A stretch of DNA of 32,000 bases. It comes from Advenella kashmirensis. GTDB taxonomy: Bacteria > Pseudomonadota > Gammaproteobacteria > Burkholderiales > Burkholderiaceae_B. Below are positions 14,373 to 21,763 of this stretch, in pieces. Numbering within the stretch: position 1 is the first letter of the stretch; every line of letters starts with the position of its first letter. Below the pieces are notes generated by a model. It had not been told where the DNA came from. It searched no databases and saw nothing but the letters and a program-made list of their open reading frames with translations. Location of the stretch: the NCBI GenBank assembly GCA_040395835.1, contig JBEBPQ010000025.1, forward strand, positions 13,174-45,173, read 5' to 3'. The position numbers and the translations under genes were made by a program.

Positions 14373-16109
14373 TTACTGTTTGCCAGCGGCCGTCCGCATT
14401 TCCCTGGCGCGCATGAGAATGGCCGGGATTCTCAAGATGACGTCGCGATCTTTCTGTTTTTCCGGTTCGGGCAAATGCTCCCAGTCCACCAGCGAGGGAT
14501 GCTGGCGCCGCACATCGTCGCGTTGTTCCCCAAACCGCCAGCCATTGAGATATCTATTGGCGGACCAGCGTTCATGCTCGACTTTGGCCAGCAGTTCAAC
14601 TTGTTCCGGATTGAAGGCAACATGTTCTGACGCATCTTGTTGACTGCCCAATTGTCCTGTCATGGCCAGCTTATACGGGATGTGATCCGCCTGCATACGG
14701 CTGGCTTCCTTTGCCTCTTCCAGCAAGTCGTCCCAACCCGTCTTGAACGCGGCGCTTTCACTGGCGCTATGGCCGGTCAATTGTTGCAGGTAATCTTCAT
14801 GAATGGCCCGCGCTTGCGTATCCTGCAGTTGCCGGGTGATGAATTCTATCTGGCAAATGGATTCGATACTGCCAAAAAATGACAGGCGGGATAGCTGATT
14901 GTGTTTGGGTCTGAACAGCGCATTCAAGCCTTCATTGTGGTAATTGAGCGCAAATATCTTGAACTTGGACAATGAAGTCGCTCTCAAGATCTCAAGCGAC
15001 CATTTCAGGTTGACGCTATCTTCCTCGAAAGCGGTGATTAGCAATGGCACAATATCGGGCGTCAGGTCCTGCAGGTGGTCCTTCAGGATCGCTTCATAGG
15101 AACCGTCATATTCCTCGAAAGTGAGCTTGGCGACCTGTCTCGCGCCCGAGTACTCAGAATGGAAGGTCTTTTCCAGTTTGCTCGCGTCGGGGGCGCAGAT
15201 GACGATTTCCGGACTCGCGCTATTGAGAGTATGCAATACCTGTAGGGCATGTACGAGCAAGGCTTTCATTGTATCGCCCGCACCCAGGAAAACCAGTCGA
15301 AAGCGAGATGCCGGATCGGCCAGCTCCGCGGTATATTCGACCGGCAACTGGGCGAAGAAGTGGCGCGCGATCATTTGATGGTGGTTGAAAAAACGCAGAT
15401 CAAGGCCGCTTTCGCGCTCTTCCTGGAAATAATCCGATTGCTGCAGCATGGTCACGACTCTGGCGTTGTTGACATGCAAAAAACATTGCAGCCGGTAGCG
15501 ATCCGGTTTGGCCTGAACCAGATTGTGCAGGGCTCGCGTGACATTGATTGTTGCCTGTTCGTTATCCAGAAAGCAAATCACATACCTGGCCTTGGCGATG
15601 CCGGCTTCGATCAGGGCAGGGGGTTGGGTCGCATCTCCATTGAACAGCAGATGGCCCTGGCGCCTAACAGTGTTGGTGTTTCTGTGCGTATTACTGATTT
15701 CAAGCGCAACACCGGTCGTGTCATGATTTGTCTTCAGGTCATCGAGTAGCGCCAGCCCCTTGTTGCCGATACCGATAACCAATACCGGCTGTTTTTTAAA
15801 GAGCAGGCGCAATTGCGTGTAGTATTCGTAAAACAGCGCTTCGGCGATTTTGTACATGCCGGCCAGCAGGCCGACGGTCACGGCGATTTTCGCCAATGTC
15901 AGTTGCCAGGGCAGGGAGTCGTCTGCCAGCTTGCCGGAGACCGGATCCGCGCCCATCAGTGTCTTCAGTGTCCTGTAGATTTTGTCCGGCAGGTACATCC
16001 ATTCATTACTATCTGGATAGTAAACGCCCAATCCCACCCATGTCAGGACGATGATGGCAATCCCTGCCAGCAGAACGAGGATGCTTTTGAGACGGTGGGA
16101 CATTTTCAT
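14373..16109 (-). CDS. Membrane protein: 2 TM helices + two TrkA_N/RCK-like Rossmann modules + C-terminal RyR (ryanodine-receptor repeat) domain (578 aa)
   Basis: ATG at 16107-16109 overlaps the stop of the upstream TIR gene (ATGA). TM1 SILVLLAGIAIIVLTWVGLGVYY; TM2 WQLTLAKIAVTVGLLAGMYKIA. Rossmann 1: VLVIGIGNKGLALLDDL...GDATQPPALIEAGIAKARYVICFLDNEQATINV. Rossmann 2: LVFLGAGDTMKALL. RyR: LLAKVEHERWSANRYLNGWRFGEQRDDVRRQHPSLVDWEHLPEPEKQKDRDVILRIPAIL. Confidence 0.85.
   Translation of the reverse strand: MKMSHRLKSILVLLAGIAIIVLTWVGLGVYYPDSNEWMYLPDKIYRTLKTLMGADPVSGKLADDSLPWQLTLAKIAVTVGLLAGMYKIAEALFYEYYTQLRLLFKKQPVLVIGIGNKGLALLDDLKTNHDTTGVALEISNTHRNTNTVRRQGHLLFNGDATQPPALIEAGIAKARYVICFLDNEQATINVTRALHNLVQAKPDRYRLQCFLHVNNARVVTMLQQSDYFQEERESGLDLRFFNHHQMIARHFFAQLPVEYTAELADPASRFRLVFLGAGDTMKALLVHALQVLHTLNSASPEIVICAPDASKLEKTFHSEYSGARQVAKLTFEEYDGSYEAILKDHLQDLTPDIVPLLITAFEEDSVNLKWSLEILRATSLSKFKIFALNYHNEGLNALFRPKHNQLSRLSFFGSIESICQIEFITRQLQDTQARAIHEDYLQQLTGHSASESAAFKTGWDDLLEEAKEASRMQADHIPYKLAMTGQLGSQQDASEHVAFNPEQVELLAKVEHERWSANRYLNGWRFGEQRDDVRRQHPSLVDWEHLPEPEKQKDRDVILRIPAILMRAREMRTAAGKQ
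14400..14828 (-). other. RyR-domain region of CDS 14373..16109 (clear C-terminal copy, possibly a degenerate upstream copy)
   Basis: aa about 503-566 match the bacterial RyR consensus as I recall it (E-H-x-R-W...GW-x-[YF]G...HP-x-LV-x-[WY]-x-x-LP-x-x-EK-x-KDR). aa about 430-485 (ARAIHEDYLQQL...GWDDLLEEAKEASRMQADHI) look like a weaker related helical repeat. Confidence 0.6.
15435..15791 (-). other. First TrkA_N/RCK-type NAD-binding-fold module of CDS 14373..16109
   Basis: GxGxxG (GIGNKG), followed by an acidic residue at the end of beta-2 (ALE) and the GDAT...L..AGI..A..VI.....D..N motif characteristic of TrkA_N. Confidence 0.65.
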
Positions 16110-19100
16110 TTCATTTCTCTTGTGATATTGGCTCGAGCCCGATTCAGGATAACGCGAGTCTGGGCTTTGAGCTTTTCGTCGGGAATTTTTGACAGTTGCA
16201 GTTCCGTCATCCGAATCAGGCCATCGGCCACGAAACCGGTGGCTGCTTGACGGCTGAAATAATCAGCCATCGCCGCCCGGGCCAGTGGATGAAAACGCCA
16301 ATATTTGTCGAGCAACCGCAAGTTTGCGTCTACGTCCTTGTTTACCCATTTGGCGAGATAGTCTGCCGTCGTCTGCTTCGAGCCTGGCAACATGGGGCGC
16401 GAGTATGGATTCTGGAAAAACCATGACGCAGGCATATGTTCACCCGCGGCGAGGTCATTGACGGAGCCCGTGCTTGTATCGTATTGTTTGCCGTAGTAGG
16501 TCTCGGCCAGCGTGGCAAGCTGCCCGACCTCATTCTGGGGCACCGTAGGTACGTCCCATATATTGAGGATCGACTGGTCGGTAGTGAAATCAAGGGTCAC
16601 GACACGCTGCTCGTTCTGCAATAGGAAGACGTAATCGATCTTGCTCATGCCAAATGGCATGCTCACCGGCAGGCCGGTAGCGGCATCGAAGATGGCGATG
16701 CCTCTTTCAGTGCCCGAATCTCCCGAGTCGGTGGTAAATATAGTACGGCCGTCCTTGGAAAATAGCAGAAATTTGCCAGCGGTATCATTCTTGATCTTCT
16801 GGCCGATCGCCTGTTTTTTCTCCAGATCCCACAGCCGGATATATTTGGCATCTTCGGCCACTGCCAGTATTTTTCCATCCGGGCTTAGATCCGATTTCGG
16901 CACATTGCCGTAGGTGGGGATAGTGATCCGCTTTTTGAAGTCCTCCATATCGTAAAGATCGATCTTGTTTTCGCGAAATGCCAGCAGGTAGCGATCTTCA
17001 CCGATGAAACTGGCGCCGGTAAGGTGGCTGCGCTCCTGATACAGGGTCTGGCCGGTTTTGATGTCGATAATTTGCCACTGGCCATCGGCTTTGAGCGTCA
17101 GAATCTTCGAAAAATCTTGCGACAGCTGATAGCGCACTTTGGGCGGCAACGCAAATTCTCGGATACGTTTACCGGTCTGAATTTCCCAGATGCCCATCGT
17201 GTCCTTACTTAAACGGCCCGATGACAACACGCCCGCCTGATCGAGCAATATATTCTTCCCTTCGATCACAATCGGCTGGCCCAGTGGCGTGCCGGTGGTT
17301 GCCTGAAAAAAACGGACTTCGCGCCGTTGGTCCGCCAGATCGGTGATGGTATAGACGAAATCATGTTTTCTGCTGACGCCGAAATCCTTGATGATCTTGC
17401 CGACTTGAATAAACTTGGGCTGTTGCTTGCCATCCTCCAGATTCCACTGATCCAGGCTGGTGCCCTCCTTCTTCAGTACCAGCACTGTTTTGCTGTCGGG
17501 AACAGTCTGGACATTGACAACGTCGCTTCCCAGTTGAACTTGGTTGCGCAATAAGGACGGACCCTGATCCGTGATCAGGTTGCGGACTCCCTGTTGATTC
17601 TTTGTACTTTGTGTGAGATCGGGGGCAATCACGTCCTCTTCGGGCGGCAGGAGCTCTTTAAAATTGATTGGCGCAGTGCCCGATGTTACTTTGCGGTCCG
17701 TGTTTCGATCGAAGACAGTGTATTGCTGATATGTGGCGGCAACCGCTGTCTTGCCGTCAGGATTGAAATAAACGGCGATTATCGGATTGTCCATGGAAAT
17801 GGAGACCGGCTGCCCACCGGGCTGGTCAAGCCTGATATGGAAGAGGGACTCCGAGTTATAGAAAAACAGACTCTTTGACTCGGGATCAAAGACAGGCCTG
17901 CCATCGTCTATCGGTAGCTGGTACTCCTCCGAGGACAGGACCGTGCTATCGGTCTGGAATCGGTAGACCCTAATTTTTGTGCTGTTGTTTTCCGAGTTGG
18001 AGAAAGCCACGGTCCTGGAATCGGGTGCAATAAGCACACGCTCGAAGCCGAGGCGAGTGGACGACAGGCTCGGTACCGATTCGACCACGACTTTTCCTGA
18101 CGCGACGCTATAGACGGTTGTCAGGTTTTTGCCCGACTGTTGATTCTCGGACACCCATCCTTGCAGAACCAGCCAGTTGCCGTCTGGGCTTACGCTGAAC
18201 TGGCCGATACGCAGCTTGGCAGGCGGGCGATAGACGATTTCGGCTTCGTTGCCGTCCTGCCAACGCACCACCTGGCTTTTGGCATTAAGGAAGAAAAGCC
18301 GGTTATTCCTGTCAAAATGCATCGACGCATTAAGAATGGACGTTGGCAGATCGAACTGGCTCAGCTCCCGATACAGACGCCTGGCGACAACGTCCCAGAT
18401 CTGCAAATTCTGCTTCTTCCCGGAGGCGTCTATCTGCACCGCAAGCCAGCGACCATTCGGACTGAACACGGGCGCGCTGGAGGCTTTGGGAATGGGGGTA
18501 ATGCCGTTTTGCCGCATCAGCATCGACTGGACATACACGGCCGCCTGCGTATTTCCCAGCCGGCTTGCGGCGGCCATATAGGCCGCGCCTTCGCCCATTT
18601 CACTTTCGTTGATCTTGTTGATGCCCGATAAATACAACGAACGGGTGAGCATTTGTTGCGCGTTGTTGCGCTCATTCCAGGCGAATATGCCAAGGATGAT
18701 CGCCATGATTGCCAGCAGCCCGATGACGATCGCAATGCGTTTAACGACCCGGTGTCGCTGTTGCGCCTTGGCCAACTGATAAGCTTGATCACGTTTGGTC
18801 AGCTCGCCCAGGGGGATATCGAGCAGTCCGGCAATGATCTTGAGCTTGGCCAGATCCAACTGGGCCTTGTACTCCGCCACTTTGCGATCTATTGCCTTGC
18901 TGCCCAGTCCGTTTTTGCTTTGCCTTAGGTGATGGCGATAGGCCTCGAACGAGGTATATCCCTGCTCGGACGAGTTGGGCAGGCGCACATCCGCGGCCAG
19001 TGGCTCCTGGCGCGTTTCCTGATCGATGGCGCCATTTTCGTCGATCCGGTAGCGTAATACTTCCGGAAAACATTGCAGTTCGTCGGTATCTTCACCGTAT

Positions 19101-19522
19101 TGGGGGTCGCCGTCGAGAATCAGGGCGATGATTTTATCGGCGCGACCGATCTGCTTGAACCAGCGTATTTCCTCGGCAACGTAGGTCGACCGGGCCGAAC
19201 GCGGCGAAGCCAGGTACACCAGATGCGCCGATTGGGTCAGGGCCTGTCGCAGTGCGGTCGAGAGATTGGCGCTGGCGGAGAGTTCCTTTTCGTCCTGGAA
19301 TACCGGGTAGATTTGCGCGGGAATAGTGTCGCCCGAGCGATTTTTTGAACCAACCAGATCGGCGGGGACTTCGTAAGTCTCGAGTTCATGATGTAGCCAG
19401 TCCGCCCATTTGCGGCCTTCTTGCCGGTTATCCGAATGGCTGTAGCTGATGAACGCAATATATTTATTTGTCTCTTTATTTGTGTTGTCAATCGCGGTTT
19501 CCATAGCACCATGTCCGAACAT
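16106..19522 (-). CDS. TIR-domain / single-TM / WD40(PD40)-like beta-propeller protein (about 1138 aa), Toll-like-receptor-type topology
   Basis: The start is uncertain: ATG at 19522 (AGGA 11 nt upstream) or ATG at 19504. The track start at 19672 is a TTG with no RBS, and its first 50 aa are Arg/Cys/His junk. Domain evidence is in the sub-features below. Stop TGA at 16106-16108. Confidence 0.85.
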   Translation of the reverse strand: MFGHGAMETAIDNTNKETNKYIAFISYSHSDNRQEGRKWADWLHHELETYEVPADLVGSKNRSGDTIPAQIYPVFQDEKELSASANLSTALRQALTQSAHLVYLASPRSARSTYVAEEIRWFKQIGRADKIIALILDGDPQYGEDTDELQCFPEVLRYRIDENGAIDQETRQEPLAADVRLPNSSEQGYTSFEAYRHHLRQSKNGLGSKAIDRKVAEYKAQLDLAKLKIIAGLLDIPLGELTKRDQAYQLAKAQQRHRVVKRIAIVIGLLAIMAIILGIFAWNERNNAQQMLTRSLYLSGINKINESEMGEGAAYMAAASRLGNTQAAVYVQSMLMRQNGITPIPKASSAPVFSPNGRWLAVQIDASGKKQNLQIWDVVARRLYRELSQFDLPTSILNASMHFDRNNRLFFLNAKSQVVRWQDGNEAEIVYRPPAKLRIGQFSVSPDGNWLVLQGWVSENQQSGKNLTTVYSVASGKVVVESVPSLSSTRLGFERVLIAPDSRTVAFSNSENNSTKIRVYRFQTDSTVLSSEEYQLPIDDGRPVFDPESKSLFFYNSESLFHIRLDQPGGQPVSISMDNPIIAVYFNPDGKTAVAATYQQYTVFDRNTDRKVTSGTAPINFKELLPPEEDVIAPDLTQSTKNQQGVRNLITDQGPSLLRNQVQLGSDVVNVQTVPDSKTVLVLKKEGTSLDQWNLEDGKQQPKFIQVGKIIKDFGVSRKHDFVYTITDLADQRREVRFFQATTGTPLGQPIVIEGKNILLDQAGVLSSGRLSKDTMGIWEIQTGKRIREFALPPKVRYQLSQDFSKILTLKADGQWQIIDIKTGQTLYQERSHLTGASFIGEDRYLLAFRENKIDLYDMEDFKKRITIPTYGNVPKSDLSPDGKILAVAEDAKYIRLWDLEKKQAIGQKIKNDTAGKFLLFSKDGRTIFTTDSGDSGTERGIAIFDAATGLPVSMPFGMSKIDYVFLLQNEQRVVTLDFTTDQSILNIWDVPTVPQNEVGQLATLAETYYGKQYDTSTGSVNDLAAGEHMPASWFFQNPYSRPMLPGSKQTTADYLAKWVNKDVDANLRLLDKYWRFHPLARAAMADYFSRQAATGFVADGLIRMTELQLSKIPDEKLKAQTRVILNRARANITREMK
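16535..18475 (-). other. Beta-propeller (WD40/PD40-like) repeat region of CDS 16106..19522, predicted extracytoplasmic
   Basis: Recurrent blade motifs: FSPNGRWLAVQ, VSPDGNWLVLQ, IAPDSRTVAFS, FDPESKSLFFY, FNPDGKTAVAA, LSQDFSKILTL, LSPDGKILAVA..IRLWD, FSKDGRTIFTT, ILNIWD. The spacing suggests one large or two tandem propellers. Confidence 0.65.
18677..18736 (-). other. Predicted transmembrane helix of CDS 16106..19522
   Basis: RIAIVIGLLAIMAIILGIFAW, preceded by a basic cluster (KAQQRHRVVKR). By the positive-inside rule this places the TIR domain in the cytoplasm and the propeller outside. Confidence 0.7.
19103..19462 (-). other. TIR domain of CDS 16106..19522
   Basis: KYIAFISYSHSDNRQEGRKWADWLHHELE...IYPVFQDEKELSASANLSTALRQALTQSAHLVYLASPRSARSTYVAEEIRWFKQ...KIIALILDGDP follows the bacterial TIR_2 pattern (FISYS / F.D...L..G / ..V.L.SP....S.W...E). 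Confidence 0.75.
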
Positions 19523-19696
19523 AAGACCGACAATCCTGCTTTTTAACTGAAAGCGGCAATGAAGACAATAGGCGAGTCCCCATGACGATCGAAATGATGT
19601 ATCGGAATGTGAATAGTGACAACCATGGCATTGGCGGCGCGGGCGCCGCGTTCCCTGGTTGTCGCGCGGCAAGTGCGATTTTGCCGATGTTCGCTG

Positions 19697-20941
19697 CTAG
19701 GTATTGTTCAGACATGGTGCGACGCTGGCGGTGCGATTCCCGGGTTTGAATCCCTGGCTGTGCGCCGCTTTGACCGTTGCCAGACCAAGCAGCGTCAGAA
19801 TCAGGAGCGCCCAGGGCAGGGCAGGGGCACCGATCCGCTCAAGCACCAGCCCGCCGGCGATGCCGCCGCCGGCGACGGCCAGGTTGAAAATGGTAACGAA
19901 CATGGATTGCGCCACGTCCGCGCTGTCGCCCGCGTTATCGGCCAGCGCAGTCTGCAGCAAGGTGGCCGAGCCGCCAAAGGTGGCCCCCCAGGCGCCAACA
20001 CCGATAAGCACGGCGACTGGCCACTCGCCGCCAATGCCCAGAACGAGGGCGGCCAGGGCGAAGCCCGCCAGGCTCAGCAGCGTCAGGGTCCTTAGCTTGC
20101 GATCCACGAAGACGCCGGTAACCCATATGCCGGCGATCGACGCGAACCCAAACAACAGCAGTACGCTATCAACGCGTGCGGCCAGTCCGCTGGCGGCAAG
20201 AAAAGGAGCGATATACGTATAAAGCATATTGTGGGCCAGGATCCAGGTGAAAAGCACGAGAAGAACGGGACGAATACCGGGAATGAACAAGATTCGCCGC
20301 ACCGGTATGCGCCGCATTGTCGATTGGCCGGGATAGTCGGGTACGGCTGCGCGCACCCATAGGCACAGTAGCAATGCCAGCAGGGACATGCCCCAAAAGA
20401 CGCCGCGCCAGTCAAAGAGCGAACCCAACCAGGTGCCCAGAGGAACCCCCAGGCACAGGGCGATTGGCTGGCCAACGCCGACGACGGCCATGGCCCGTCC
20501 CTGTAGATGATGCGGCACCATGCGCCGCGCATAACCGGCAAGGAGCCCCCAGACCACGCCCGCGGCCATGCCGGCAATGAAACGGGCGGCTAGCGTCAAT
20601 CCATAACTGTCCGATAGCGCCGTCACGCTGTTGAAAATCAGCAATCCCGAAACTGCCAGAAGAAACAATGGACGCCGGTGCCAACTGCGGGTTGCGGCGA
20701 TCACGGGGATTGCGGCCAGTACGGAACCTAGTGCGTAAACAGTGACCAGTTGCCCGGCCAGGGCCTGCGAGACGGCAAGACCGGCGCTGATTTGCGGCAA
20801 CAGGCCCGCCGGCATGGTTTCGGTCATGATAGCAATAAAACCCGCCATAGTGAGCGCCAGGAGTTTGCCAATCGGCAGGTGATCGACCACCTTGGCGTCA
20901 ACGGCGGATCGTACCGGGTTATTCTTGTCTGGCGTAGGCAT
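19697..20941 (-). CDS. MFS transporter (DHA1 / SotB-YdhP-like efflux type, 414 aa)
   Basis: 12-TM pattern. N-terminal LALTMAGFIAIMTETMPAGLLPQIS...QLVTVYALGSVLAAIP and loop motif RSWHRRPL are typical of this MFS subgroup. Divergent from the HTH regulator at 21077. Confidence 0.9.
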   Translation of the reverse strand: MPTPDKNNPVRSAVDAKVVDHLPIGKLLALTMAGFIAIMTETMPAGLLPQISAGLAVSQALAGQLVTVYALGSVLAAIPVIAATRSWHRRPLFLLAVSGLLIFNSVTALSDSYGLTLAARFIAGMAAGVVWGLLAGYARRMVPHHLQGRAMAVVGVGQPIALCLGVPLGTWLGSLFDWRGVFWGMSLLALLLCLWVRAAVPDYPGQSTMRRIPVRRILFIPGIRPVLLVLFTWILAHNMLYTYIAPFLAASGLAARVDSVLLLFGFASIAGIWVTGVFVDRKLRTLTLLSLAGFALAALVLGIGGEWPVAVLIGVGAWGATFGGSATLLQTALADNAGDSADVAQSMFVTIFNLAVAGGGIAGGLVLERIGAPALPWALLILTLLGLATVKAAHSQGFKPGNRTASVAPCLNNT

Positions 20942-21076: not shown

Positions 21077-21763
21077 TTGTCAAGAAAAAACTTGGAAAAT
21101 TGGCGTGCAGAGCTAGGCTCGACCTCGGAACGGCTGTTGCTGTTGTTGAAGACGCGCGGCCCGCAGCAATCGATGGCGGCTGGCAAGTTGCTGGGTACGA
21201 CGTCCGAAGCGGTACGGCAGCAGTTCGTGAAGTTGGCGGATGCCGGGCTGGTCGAATCTTTCTCGCAAACCAGGGGCGTTGGCCGTCCCAGTCAATTCTG
21301 GAAATTGACGCAGGCGGGCCACAAGCGTTTTCCAGACAGCCATGCCGAATTGACCATGCAACTGCTCGATACCGTCAGGCAGGTGTACGGAGAAGCAGCG
21401 ATTGAACAACTGATTGATGCCCGGGAACAGGCGAGCGAAGCGCGCTATTCACAGGAAATGGCCGGACTGGAGGGGCTGAGCGCGCGCATGGAAAAGCTGG
21501 CGGACTTGCGATCCGCGGAGGGTTATATGGCGCAGGTCGAGGCGCGGGAGGATGGGGCGTTGCTGCTGGTGGAAAACCATTGCCCCATTTGCGCGGCAGC
21601 AACGGCATGCCAGGGGTTCTGTCGTTCCGAAAGAATGGTGTTCGAGCGCGTGCTGCAGGCGCGGGTCGAGCGGGTTGAGCATATCCTGAACCAGGCACGG
21701 CGTTGCGCCTATGTCGTCAGCCCGCTATCGATCAGTTCGCCTGAAAACCAGAAAAAGCGCTAA
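21077..21763 (+). CDS. ArsR-like winged-helix transcriptional regulator with C-terminal Cys-containing domain (COG2345-like)
   Basis: TTG start at 21077 with SD AAGGAA 6 nt upstream; no in-frame ATG precedes the HTH. SERLLLLLKTRGPQQSMAAGKLLGTTSEAVRQQFVKLADAGLVE...GVGRPSQFWKLTQAGHKRFPDSH. C-terminal ENHCPICAAATACQGFCRSE. Confidence 0.8.
   Translation: MSRKNLENWRAELGSTSERLLLLLKTRGPQQSMAAGKLLGTTSEAVRQQFVKLADAGLVESFSQTRGVGRPSQFWKLTQAGHKRFPDSHAELTMQLLDTVRQVYGEAAIEQLIDAREQASEARYSQEMAGLEGLSARMEKLADLRSAEGYMAQVEAREDGALLLVENHCPICAAATACQGFCRSERMVFERVLQARVERVEHILNQARRCAYVVSPLSISSPENQKKR

Follow-up and report, generated by a model that had tools for sequence, protein, structure and literature searches.

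The described systems closest to the locus reported here are the Thoeris systems, for which a preprint of December 2025 listed 29 putative effector types and validated types V to XI (Yirmiya et al., bioRxiv, 10.64898/2025.12.03.692087). Membrane disruption is the activity of several Thoeris effectors, and type X pairs a TIR protein with an "ion channel," ThsK, the signal between them being unknown (10.64898/2025.12.03.692087). On the phage side, the mycobacteriophage protein RyDEP, which carries a PF02026 (RyR) domain, cleaves 2'/3' cyclic ADP-ribose (2'/3'cADPR), and RyDEP-related phage RyR proteins bind 2'/3'cADPR with affinities in the nanomolar range (PMC13232231; 10.64898/2026.06.04.730250). 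Here we analyzed a stretch of 32,000 nucleotides from Advenella kashmirensis (contig JBEBPQ010000025.1, positions 13,174 to 45,173), called the window below, in which two adjacent genes on the minus strand encode a membrane-anchored TIR protein with beta-propellers (gene 1) and a membrane protein with RCK and RyR domains (gene 2). The pair looks like an undescribed Thoeris-like signaling pair and a bacterial parallel to cADPR-to-ryanodine-receptor signaling.

16106 to 19522, minus strand: gene 1, with TIR domain, membrane helix, double beta-propeller and helical tail (open reading frame [ORF], Pfam, AlphaFold2, relatives)
14373 to 16109, minus strand: gene 2, with pore-like module of two transmembrane helices, tandem RCK and tandem RyR (ORF of 578 residues, Pfam, AlphaFold2, Foldseek)
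16106 to 16109, minus strand: ATGA shared by the stop of gene 1 and the start of gene 2 (direct sequence reading)

How does this locus compare with Thoeris? Both are two-gene operons in which a TIR with a candidate catalytic glutamate stands beside a nucleotide-sensor-type domain joined to a membrane or toxic output. In contrast to the typical ThsB, which is small and cytoplasmic, the gene 1 protein has 1138 residues, is membrane-anchored and has about 800 residues that are predicted to be extracytoplasmic; the pair also differs from Thoeris in having no defense-island context. Type X resembles it more closely in that a TIR is paired with a predicted ion channel. However, the type X scaffold found in a metagenome scan (L085, the tested Vibrio-scaffold locus) carries a 208-residue Ion_trans_2 effector without RCK or RyR and a 168-residue ThsB from a cluster that includes type II Thoeris. 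PADLOC and Pfam found no family common to that scaffold and our pair except TIR, Pfam gave no Ion_trans_2 match for gene 2, and we rejected an assignment to type X because both proteins differ from those of the scaffold. A plasmid search for type X by TIR sequence gave two matches that were inspected, and both were type II (Macro) systems.

The terms RyR, TrkA, RCK, WD40, PF02026 and PF02254 were absent from those parts of the text and supplements of the Thoeris preprint that we covered, and sequence motifs of gene 1 were not found in the supplementary tables among them (10.64898/2025.12.03.692087). Both 2026 preprints on phage RyR proteins point out that these are homologous to ryanodine receptors of animals, and a cellular protein with an RyR domain and a TIR partner is mentioned in neither (PMC13232231; 10.64898/2026.06.04.730250). 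Our literature search found no paper connecting a TIR with a TrkA_N-RyR protein. The initial annotation of this DNA had claimed novelty for the pair against a list of known TIR systems. The pair itself is still undescribed, but that list was outdated: Thoeris types V to XI have been named, and with type X among them the idea that a TIR works with a channel effector already exists (10.64898/2025.12.03.692087).

Conservation of the pair and its distant relatives

Direct reading of the sequence confirmed the two minus-strand ORFs and their overlap. The junction reads GAA ATG AAA TGA AAA TG, and the ATG of gene 2 shares four bases with the TGA of gene 1. The 1138 residues of gene 1 are counted from the ATG at 19522; its ORF runs on to a TTG at 19672 (16106 to 19672).

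Are the two gene families found side by side in other genomes? A genome scan with a gene 2 profile yielded 80 loci from many phyla. We defined as the close clade the 29 loci outside the window in which gene 2 is at least 37% identical to that of the window; they represent at least 10 genera and three phyla, with Advenella, Sphingobacterium, Dentiradicibacter, Brachymonas, Cardiobacteriaceae, Neisseriaceae, Comamonadaceae, Propionivibrio, Diaphorobacter and Desulfobulbus among the taxa. All 29 carried a gene-1-type ORF immediately upstream of gene 2 on the same strand, with the two genes abutting, overlapping or lying within about 200 nucleotides (nt) of each other. A TIR was found in every close-clade locus whose contig was long enough, and the six loci without a TIR match end inside the upstream ORF. 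The identities of the two proteins to their counterparts in the window covaried (r = 0.98, 19 loci). Within the orthologous clade the pairing is obligatory; outside that clade it recurs without being universal. Gene 1 and gene 2 form a genuine conserved two-gene module. This conserved co-localization strongly backs the proposal of the initial annotation that the RCK-RyR membrane protein acts as the reader of a TIR product.

Both families extend well beyond these loci. Homolog searches recovered about 65 clusters of full-length gene 1 relatives, and an exhaustive search with the gene 2 profile returned 3381 cluster representatives at E ≤ 1e-30, the best 150 of which were nearly all matched over their full length. 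A word-indexed search with gene 2, as a single sequence or as a profile, returned only 16 to 17 proteins and missed the Sphingobacterium partners; the size of the family is taken from the exhaustive profile search and the genome scan.

Some copies are broken or rearranged. Gene 1 is split in two ORFs in Sphingobacterium daejeonense (L013 4661-7995, 323 and 789 residues) and in a Brachymonas metagenome-assembled genome (L020 1730-5047, 208 and 890 residues), which reflects either a frameshift or a sequencing error. In Diaphorobacter aerolatus CP060783 (L002/L028), gene 2 is split into ORFs of 356 and 271 residues and is probably a pseudogene. A 1083-residue protein on a 4.2-kb Logan contig (P0077) is gene-1-like up to about residue 966, where it is fused to a gene-2-like segment (456-571) that includes the RyR repeat. 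We rejected this TIR-WD40 protein as a "Rosetta stone" fusion, as its RyR would lie in the periplasm; it is either what a deletion has left of the operon or an artifact of chimeric assembly.

We then considered the distant clade, defined as 53 loci whose gene 2 relatives are 24 to 29% identical to that of the window. Pfam searches of 103 neighboring ORFs found TIR_2 to be the commonest family (10), followed by RyR (5), SLATT_1 (4) and patatin (3). In 0.53 Mb of flanking DNA, an iterated TIR profile picked out 10 TIR genes, spread over nine loci, where 0.4 to 2.6 would be expected at an assumed, generous background of 0.75 to 5 per Mb. These genes had been missed by a first TIR profile built from gene 1 relatives only and were recovered by Pfam and the iterated profile. 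Seven of the ten TIR proteins are built like gene 1, with a TIR, one membrane helix about 20 to 75 residues later and a variable domain (FGE-sulfatase, Sel1, PKD-PD40, PDZ, 3-keto-disaccharide-hydrolase-like, or none recognized). The eighth is a TIR-TPR protein with only a weak, late hydrophobic stretch, and the remaining two are short, with no membrane helix seen.

In two Vibrio-type clusters, a TIR of the gene 1 subfamily lies about 1.1 kb from a convergent gene for a 630-residue TrkA_N-RyR protein; their TIR proteins have 626 and 1312 residues, the longer one with TPRs. Both clusters (Vibrio cholerae L092, GCA_016457135, and L094, GCA_028486965) share the order Lcl_C, HD_4, a Sel1/TPR protein and the TIR, followed by DUF350, a 237-residue ORF, the convergent TrkA_N-RyR gene and peptidase M32. 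The TIR has one hydrophobic segment near residue 264; L094 has the TPRs, and an Hcp gene lies at its edge.

Several other neighbors of the distant relatives were recorded. Proteins of 831 to 904 residues with RelA_SpoT, TPR and C-terminal RyR domains lie beside distant RCK-RyR genes in L036 (10716-13211, with a marginal SLOG [LSDAT_prok] match as well) and L037 (3090-5804), and they are a second nucleotide-signaling architecture that ends in an RyR domain. In L039 (3-2957) and L062 (5730-8561), proteins of about 940 to 980 residues with a weak AAA-type ATPase match and a C-terminal RyR overlap the start of the RCK-RyR gene. Two further distant RCK-RyR genes, with no TIR in their loci, have conflict-system neighbors: a SLATT protein is encoded upstream on the same strand with a gap of about 180 nt in L031 (6092-7699), and a NACHT-TPR STAND NTPase gene, also upstream and on the same strand, overlaps the RCK-RyR gene start in L045 (5066-7864). 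A Verrucomicrobiota contig (CM136900; L096 1306-3321) carries a three-gene set of TIR_2, ThsB_TIR and SLATT that resembles Thoeris type VII; it lies 2.7 kb upstream of a gene for a 925-residue TIR protein (P0130) with a hydrophobic segment near residue 272 and no RCK-RyR nearby.

Gene 2's RyR domain and the predicted ligand pocket

Which part of gene 2 could read a signal made by the TIR? The protein's C-terminal region contains two RyR repeats.

14655 to 14834, minus strand: divergent first RyR-like repeat, residues ~426-485, ARAIH437EDY...W459..L.E.AK.A.R471.QADH (alignments, Foldseek)
14376 to 14618, minus strand: canonical RyR repeat, residues ~498-578, with H512, W515, R530, H537, K553 and D554 (Pfam, PDB, alignment)

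The RyR stretch matched solved RyR repeat structures at E = 3e-23 in a PDB sequence search, and Foldseek aligned about 180 columns of gene 2 to human RyR3 Repeat12. Within the divergent repeat, H437, Y440, W459 and R471 are invariant or almost so among 78 family members. The best viral structural matches of gene 2 include phage RyR proteins, and 79 phage records carry a relative of its RyR domain.

The ligand residues of the phage proteins can be placed on gene 2. RyDEP uses H75, W78, H100 and D117, and most of the RyR homologs tested that have its His/Asp dyad did not cleave the signal (PMC13232231; 10.64898/2026.06.04.730250). RyR Tad, which is gp68 of Pectobacterium phage CB1, binds 3'cADPR with a dissociation constant (KD) of 43 nM through the pairs H129/W132, K147/H154 and K170/D171, and mutants in these pairs bind about 100-fold more weakly (PMC13232231; 10.64898/2026.06.04.730250). 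An ungapped alignment of gp68 with gene 2 matched H129, W132, K147, H154, K170 and D171 to H512, W515, R530, H537, K553 and D554, so that five of the six ligand residues are identical and one lysine is replaced by arginine (R530). The spacing of the residues in the gene 2 pocket equals that of H75/W78/H100/D117 in RyDEP. All six residues are present in 27 of 28 close-clade sequences, which is every one that covers the region, and H512, W515 and D554 are kept in most of the wider gene 2 family.

Because PF02026 domains bind or cleave 2'/3'cADPR and gene 2 keeps the residues that they use, the RyR domain is likely the reader of the TIR product. The choice of the gene 2 membrane protein as the reader, made in the initial annotation, is strongly backed, with the change that the part that reads is likely the RyR domain and not primarily the RCK modules. 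Gene 2 shares with RyDEP and RyR Tad the PF02026 family, an alignment without gaps that keeps the predicted ligand residues, and a two-fold arrangement, which is a dimer in the phage proteins and a tandem repeat in gene 2. In contrast, the phage proteins are small and soluble and counteract defense, whereas the RyR of gene 2 forms the C-terminal end of a membrane protein that the host encodes beside a TIR. This setting suggests for the RyR of gene 2 a host-side receptor role from which the phage sponges may derive.

Architecture of the two proteins

The domain calls of the initial annotation (TIR, membrane helix and propeller in gene 1; two membrane helices, two RCK modules and RyR in gene 2) held in Pfam, PDB and AlphaFold2/Foldseek analyses. 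Gene 1 comprises the following parts.

18968 to 19465, minus strand: TIR domain, residues ~20-185, predicted cytoplasmic (TIR_2 at 39.8 bits; AlphaFold2 TIR fold 21-180)
19169 to 19171, minus strand: codon of Glu118, the candidate catalytic glutamate, in YVAEE118I (alignments)
18737 to 18967, minus strand: helical linker from the TIR to the membrane helix, residues 186-262 (AlphaFold2 helices 192-261)
18680 to 18736, minus strand: single transmembrane helix IAIVIGLLAIMAIILGIFA, residues 263-281 (Kyte-Doolittle 3.06)
16547 to 18508, minus strand: two tandem WD40/PD40-type beta-propellers, residues ~339-992, predicted periplasmic (Pfam, AlphaFold2, Foldseek)
16109 to 16546, minus strand: C-terminal helical domain, residues 993-1138, predicted periplasmic (AlphaFold2 helices 999-1137)

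Pfam placed TIR_2 at residues 24-140, above its cutoff of 28 bits, with ThsB_TIR barely over its own cutoff and many WD40/PD40 propeller matches between residues of about 340 and 1000. The AlphaFold2 model, built on 59 relatives, had a mean predicted local distance difference test score (pLDDT) of 88 and showed beta-strands uninterrupted from residue 340 to 990; the best PDB matches of gene 1 in Foldseek were double-propeller proteins, Apaf-1 among them. The TIR is the best-conserved part of gene 1, with a mean identity of 64% to the window protein among 58 relatives. Glu118 is unchanged in all 59 aligned sequences, and a PDB sequence search aligned it with the second E of Roq1 "WCLEEL" in a weak match (E about 1). 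We take this second E to be the catalytic Glu86 of the plant TIR Roq1. Such marginal Roq1 matches served to map residues and are no evidence of family membership.

The helix IAIVIGLLAIMAIILGIFA is the sole strongly hydrophobic stretch in gene 1. Because the protein has no signal peptide, and Lys and Arg number five in the 15 residues before the helix and two after it, the positive-inside rule implies that the N-terminus with the TIR should lie inside and the C-terminus with the propellers in the periplasm. Conservation differs sharply between the two halves: the linker retains a mean identity of 54% among relatives, and the propellers retain only 22 to 27%, compared with 64% for the TIR. The propellers are predicted to be the variable sensor part, in a receptor-like pattern of variation in which the cytoplasmic half is far better kept. 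In the helical tail region, conserved residues include W989, P992, E1007, W1034, P1046 and P1079.

With an outside repeat-domain sensor, one membrane helix and a TIR inside, gene 1 recalls the Toll-like receptors. However, its TIR is N-terminal, so that the order is reversed, its ectodomain is a propeller and not leucine-rich repeats, and its TIR is predicted to be an enzyme and not an adaptor; the likeness would be one of topology only.

Gene 2 begins with a pore-like module and continues with two Rossmann modules ahead of the RyR repeats.

15798 to 16109, minus strand: outer helix, short re-entrant helix, loop and inner helix, residues 1-104 (AlphaFold2 helices 5-30, 37-51 and 68-104)
15324 to 15797, minus strand: RCK1, a TrkA_N Rossmann module with G113-x-G-x-x-G118 and E137 (Pfam TrkA_N, 48 bits)
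14835 to 15323, minus strand: RCK2, second Rossmann module, with G276-x-G278 (AlphaFold2; Foldseek to TrkA and GsuK over ~400-500 columns)

Pfam matched TrkA_N at residues 109-200 and RyR at residues 503-558 (50.2 bits against a cutoff of 27.4), both above cutoff. The AlphaFold2 model (pLDDT 84, predicted template modeling score 0.79) contains the two Rossmann modules and a helical C-terminal domain. In Foldseek, the best PDB match was GsuK, a tandem-RCK multi-ligand-gated K+ channel (E = 2.5e-8), followed by TrkA, MthK, human RyR3 Repeat12 and a Bacteroides RyR protein. The membrane module is part of the GsuK match because full-length GsuK chains aligned over about 505 columns, compared with about 430 for RCK-only chains. 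In RCK1, G113, G118 and E/D137 are kept throughout the wider family (78 members). The assignment of RCK2, for which the Pfam match is faint, is supported by the structural models.

Like GsuK, MthK and TrkA, gene 2 has an outer helix, a pore helix and an inner helix followed by a cytoplasmic RCK ring, and with GsuK it also shares two RCK domains per subunit and the Rossmann nucleotide motif. It differs from them in an extra tandem RyR, a TIR operon partner and the loop TLMGADPVSG, in which TLMGADP replaces TVGYG. This loop sits in place of the K+ filter. Its residues G53, D55 and P56 do not vary among close-clade sequences, and distant relatives have a shorter loop. No TVGYG-type selectivity filter is present in gene 2, and we rejected its identification as a K+ channel on that ground. 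Our best reading of the models is that gene 2 is a channel-like relative of GsuK and MthK, and not a K+ channel, with a predicted pore that is non-K+-selective. The view of the initial annotation that the TIR, Rossmann and RyR parts all face the cytoplasm agrees with the predicted topology of both proteins.

Animal ryanodine receptors resemble gene 2 in being of a tetrameric-channel type with an RyR repeat pair and the same pocket residues, and the ADP-ribose derivative made by a TIR or cyclase that we propose upstream of gene 2 would parallel animal cADPR signaling. The pores are different, however (six transmembrane helices in the receptor, compared with two and a P-loop plus RCK in gene 2), there is a roughly tenfold gap in size, and homology is confined to the RyR repeat.

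One further feature lies upstream of the pair.

19523 to 19696, minus strand: intergenic leader upstream of gene 1 (weak sigma-70-like match with -35 at 19622, from a consensus scan only)

Scans for promoters and terminators gave matches no more frequent than in shuffled sequence. A 16-nt inverted repeat (15 of 16 positions complementary) joins window positions 19506-19521 and 19705-19720 in the minus-strand RNA, so that the end of the upstream MFS coding sequence base-pairs with the opening codons of gene 1, including the UG of the AUG. Both the minimum free energy fold and the centroid fold of a 236-nt stretch contain the stem (z = -4.2). On read-through transcripts the stem could occlude the gene 1 start, or it could be due to chance, as we estimate that about 0.4 such pairs are expected per 8.5 kb.

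Proposed signaling, alternatives and genomic context

We favor, with moderate confidence, a reading in which a TIR receptor that faces the envelope produces a cADPR-type signal, and the RyR domain of its partner reads this signal to gate a non-K+-selective pore. Gene 1 would be a single-pass inner-membrane receptor with its double propeller and tail in the periplasm and its N-terminal TIR in the cytoplasm. An envelope cue that binds or perturbs the propellers would cluster the TIRs, and the active TIR, in which Glu118 is present and invariant, would convert NAD+ to a cyclic or otherwise modified ADP-ribose. Gene 2 would form a GsuK-like tetrameric P-loop channel with a tandem-RCK gating ring, no K+ filter and cytoplasmic tandem RyR domains, whose pocket, in fold and residues that of the phage proteins for 2'/3'cADPR, would bind the signal. 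Binding would open the pore and cause ion flux or depolarization, and a further input, such as the NAD+/ADP state, may come from the RCK nucleotide sites. The role would be either an envelope-triggered abortive antiphage defense or a nonimmune envelope-stress response.

Several results weigh against this reading. Of the 53 distant RCK-RyR loci, 44 have no TIR in the DNA available, and five other relatives of the TIR-membrane-sensor type have no RCK-RyR within 5 to 6 kb; neither partner strictly requires the other. The TIR region of gene 1 matches solved structures only weakly in sequence, as the E value for Roq1 indicates. The pore is unproven, given the missing TVGYG filter and the low pLDDT of loop residues 52-67. 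The RyR domain retains the catalytic His/Asp pair of RyDEP (H512 and D554) and might degrade the signal. Finally, apart from Diaphorobacter, there was no defense-island signal in the window or in 13 related neighborhoods, and the defense-island context that the initial annotation had considered did not emerge.

In the window, the genes around the pair encode LysR regulators, a TctC receptor, gamma-glutamyltransferase, MFS transporters and LeuA. A 228-residue ORF between an MFS gene and a LysR regulator (21077-21763, plus strand) had no Pfam match at E ≤ 1e-5. Scans of the window found no tRNA, Rfam element, flanking repeats or mobile-element genes and thus no island boundaries. As the initial annotation had anticipated, PADLOC recognized no known system, with only weak TIR matches for gene 1 and no match for gene 2. 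In the 13 related loci, a small sample, the 76 neighbors classified by Pfam and PADLOC were mostly housekeeping genes. The only defense neighbor was a type II CRISPR-Cas system (Cas9, Cas1) a few kilobases from the pair in two Diaphorobacter loci, D. aerolatus CP060783 (L002/L028) and D. caeni (L026). Flanking genes were stable within Advenella and within Sphingobacterium.

These neighborhoods bear on the possibility that the same path from TIR product to RyR-RCK channel serves housekeeping, reporting on the envelope or periplasm and tuning ion flux or membrane potential, and not defense against phage. Metabolic and transport surroundings that are stable within two genera speak for such a role, as does the failure to find a PADLOC match, mobile-element genes, tRNA or flanking repeats. 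It fits poorly with the patchy spread of the pair over Betaproteobacteria, Bacteroidota and Desulfobacterota, with the existence of pseudogenized copies and the rapid divergence of the sensor part, with SLATT, patatin, NACHT and TIR genes, all typical of conflict systems, beside distant relatives, and with the 79 phage records of RyR relatives, a family that includes proven anti-Thoeris proteins. We regard a housekeeping role as possible but rather unlikely. The antiphage role is itself unproven and abortive infection a guess; patchy spread across phyla, split copies of either gene and the fast-diverging sensor point toward a conflict role, as do the TIR, SLATT, patatin and NACHT neighbors of the distant relatives.

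Could the TIR itself kill by depleting NAD+, with the RCK of gene 2 reading the fall in NAD+ or the rise in ADP-ribose or ADP, or adding a membrane insult, and with RyR as no dedicated receptor? The GxGxxG motif of RCK1 and the acidic residue that ends beta-2 are kept across the family, GsuK, the best structural match, was crystallized with NAD and ADP, and the many TIR-membrane-sensor relatives that stand alone without RCK-RyR nearby would fit a self-sufficient NADase. However, the predicted cADPR-isomer pocket is intact in every close-clade sequence that covers it, pairing in 29 of 29 loci together with co-divergence exceeds what an optional accessory would need, and RyR also occurs on the RelA/SpoT-TPR-SLOG proteins beside distant RCK-RyR genes, a nucleotide-signaling context. 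On balance we consider killing by NAD+ depletion unlikely.

More doubtful still is the idea that the RyR of gene 2 is a brake and clears cADPR made by the TIR, either as a glycosidase or as a sponge, while the output is NAD+ loss or an effector elsewhere. Such a brake would keep the system from activating itself or would reset it, much as RyDEP and RyR Tad serve phages. The His/Asp dyad of RyDEP is present, and phage homologs do cleave or sequester the signal. A brake would not need a pore module and a tandem-RCK gating ring, which are nonetheless kept family-wide, and most of the RyR homologs tested with the same dyad failed to cleave the signal. Finally, an accidental adjacency of two independent proteins is scarcely credible in view of the ATGA overlap, the pair kept in 29 of 29 related loci and the recurrence of the association with other TIR architectures and orientations.

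If the proposed path from envelope-facing TIR to RyR-gated pore is correct, the pair would add to Thoeris-type immunity a membrane-spanning TIR receptor with an extracytoplasmic sensor, an RCK-gated channel output and the RyR repeat as a cellular signal receptor. More tentatively, it is conceivable that bacteria possess transmembrane pattern-recognition receptors of Toll-like topology, with variable propeller, FGE-sulfatase/lectin-like, PKD-PD40, Sel1 or PDZ sensors outside, one membrane helix and a TIR enzyme inside, that signal via cyclic ADP-ribose to a channel gated by RyR repeats. In that case the module would be a host-side origin of the phage RyR sponges, a prokaryotic antecedent of cADPR-to-RyR signaling, and a TIR system with its sensing placed beyond the cytoplasm, in which it would differ from the Thoeris systems characterized so far. 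The operon family is a candidate cellular RyR-domain partner for TIR-made signals, and it opens the questions of whether sensing cADPR on ion channels is the ancestral function of RyR repeats and whether bacteria detect threats at the envelope by receptors like the Toll-like receptors.

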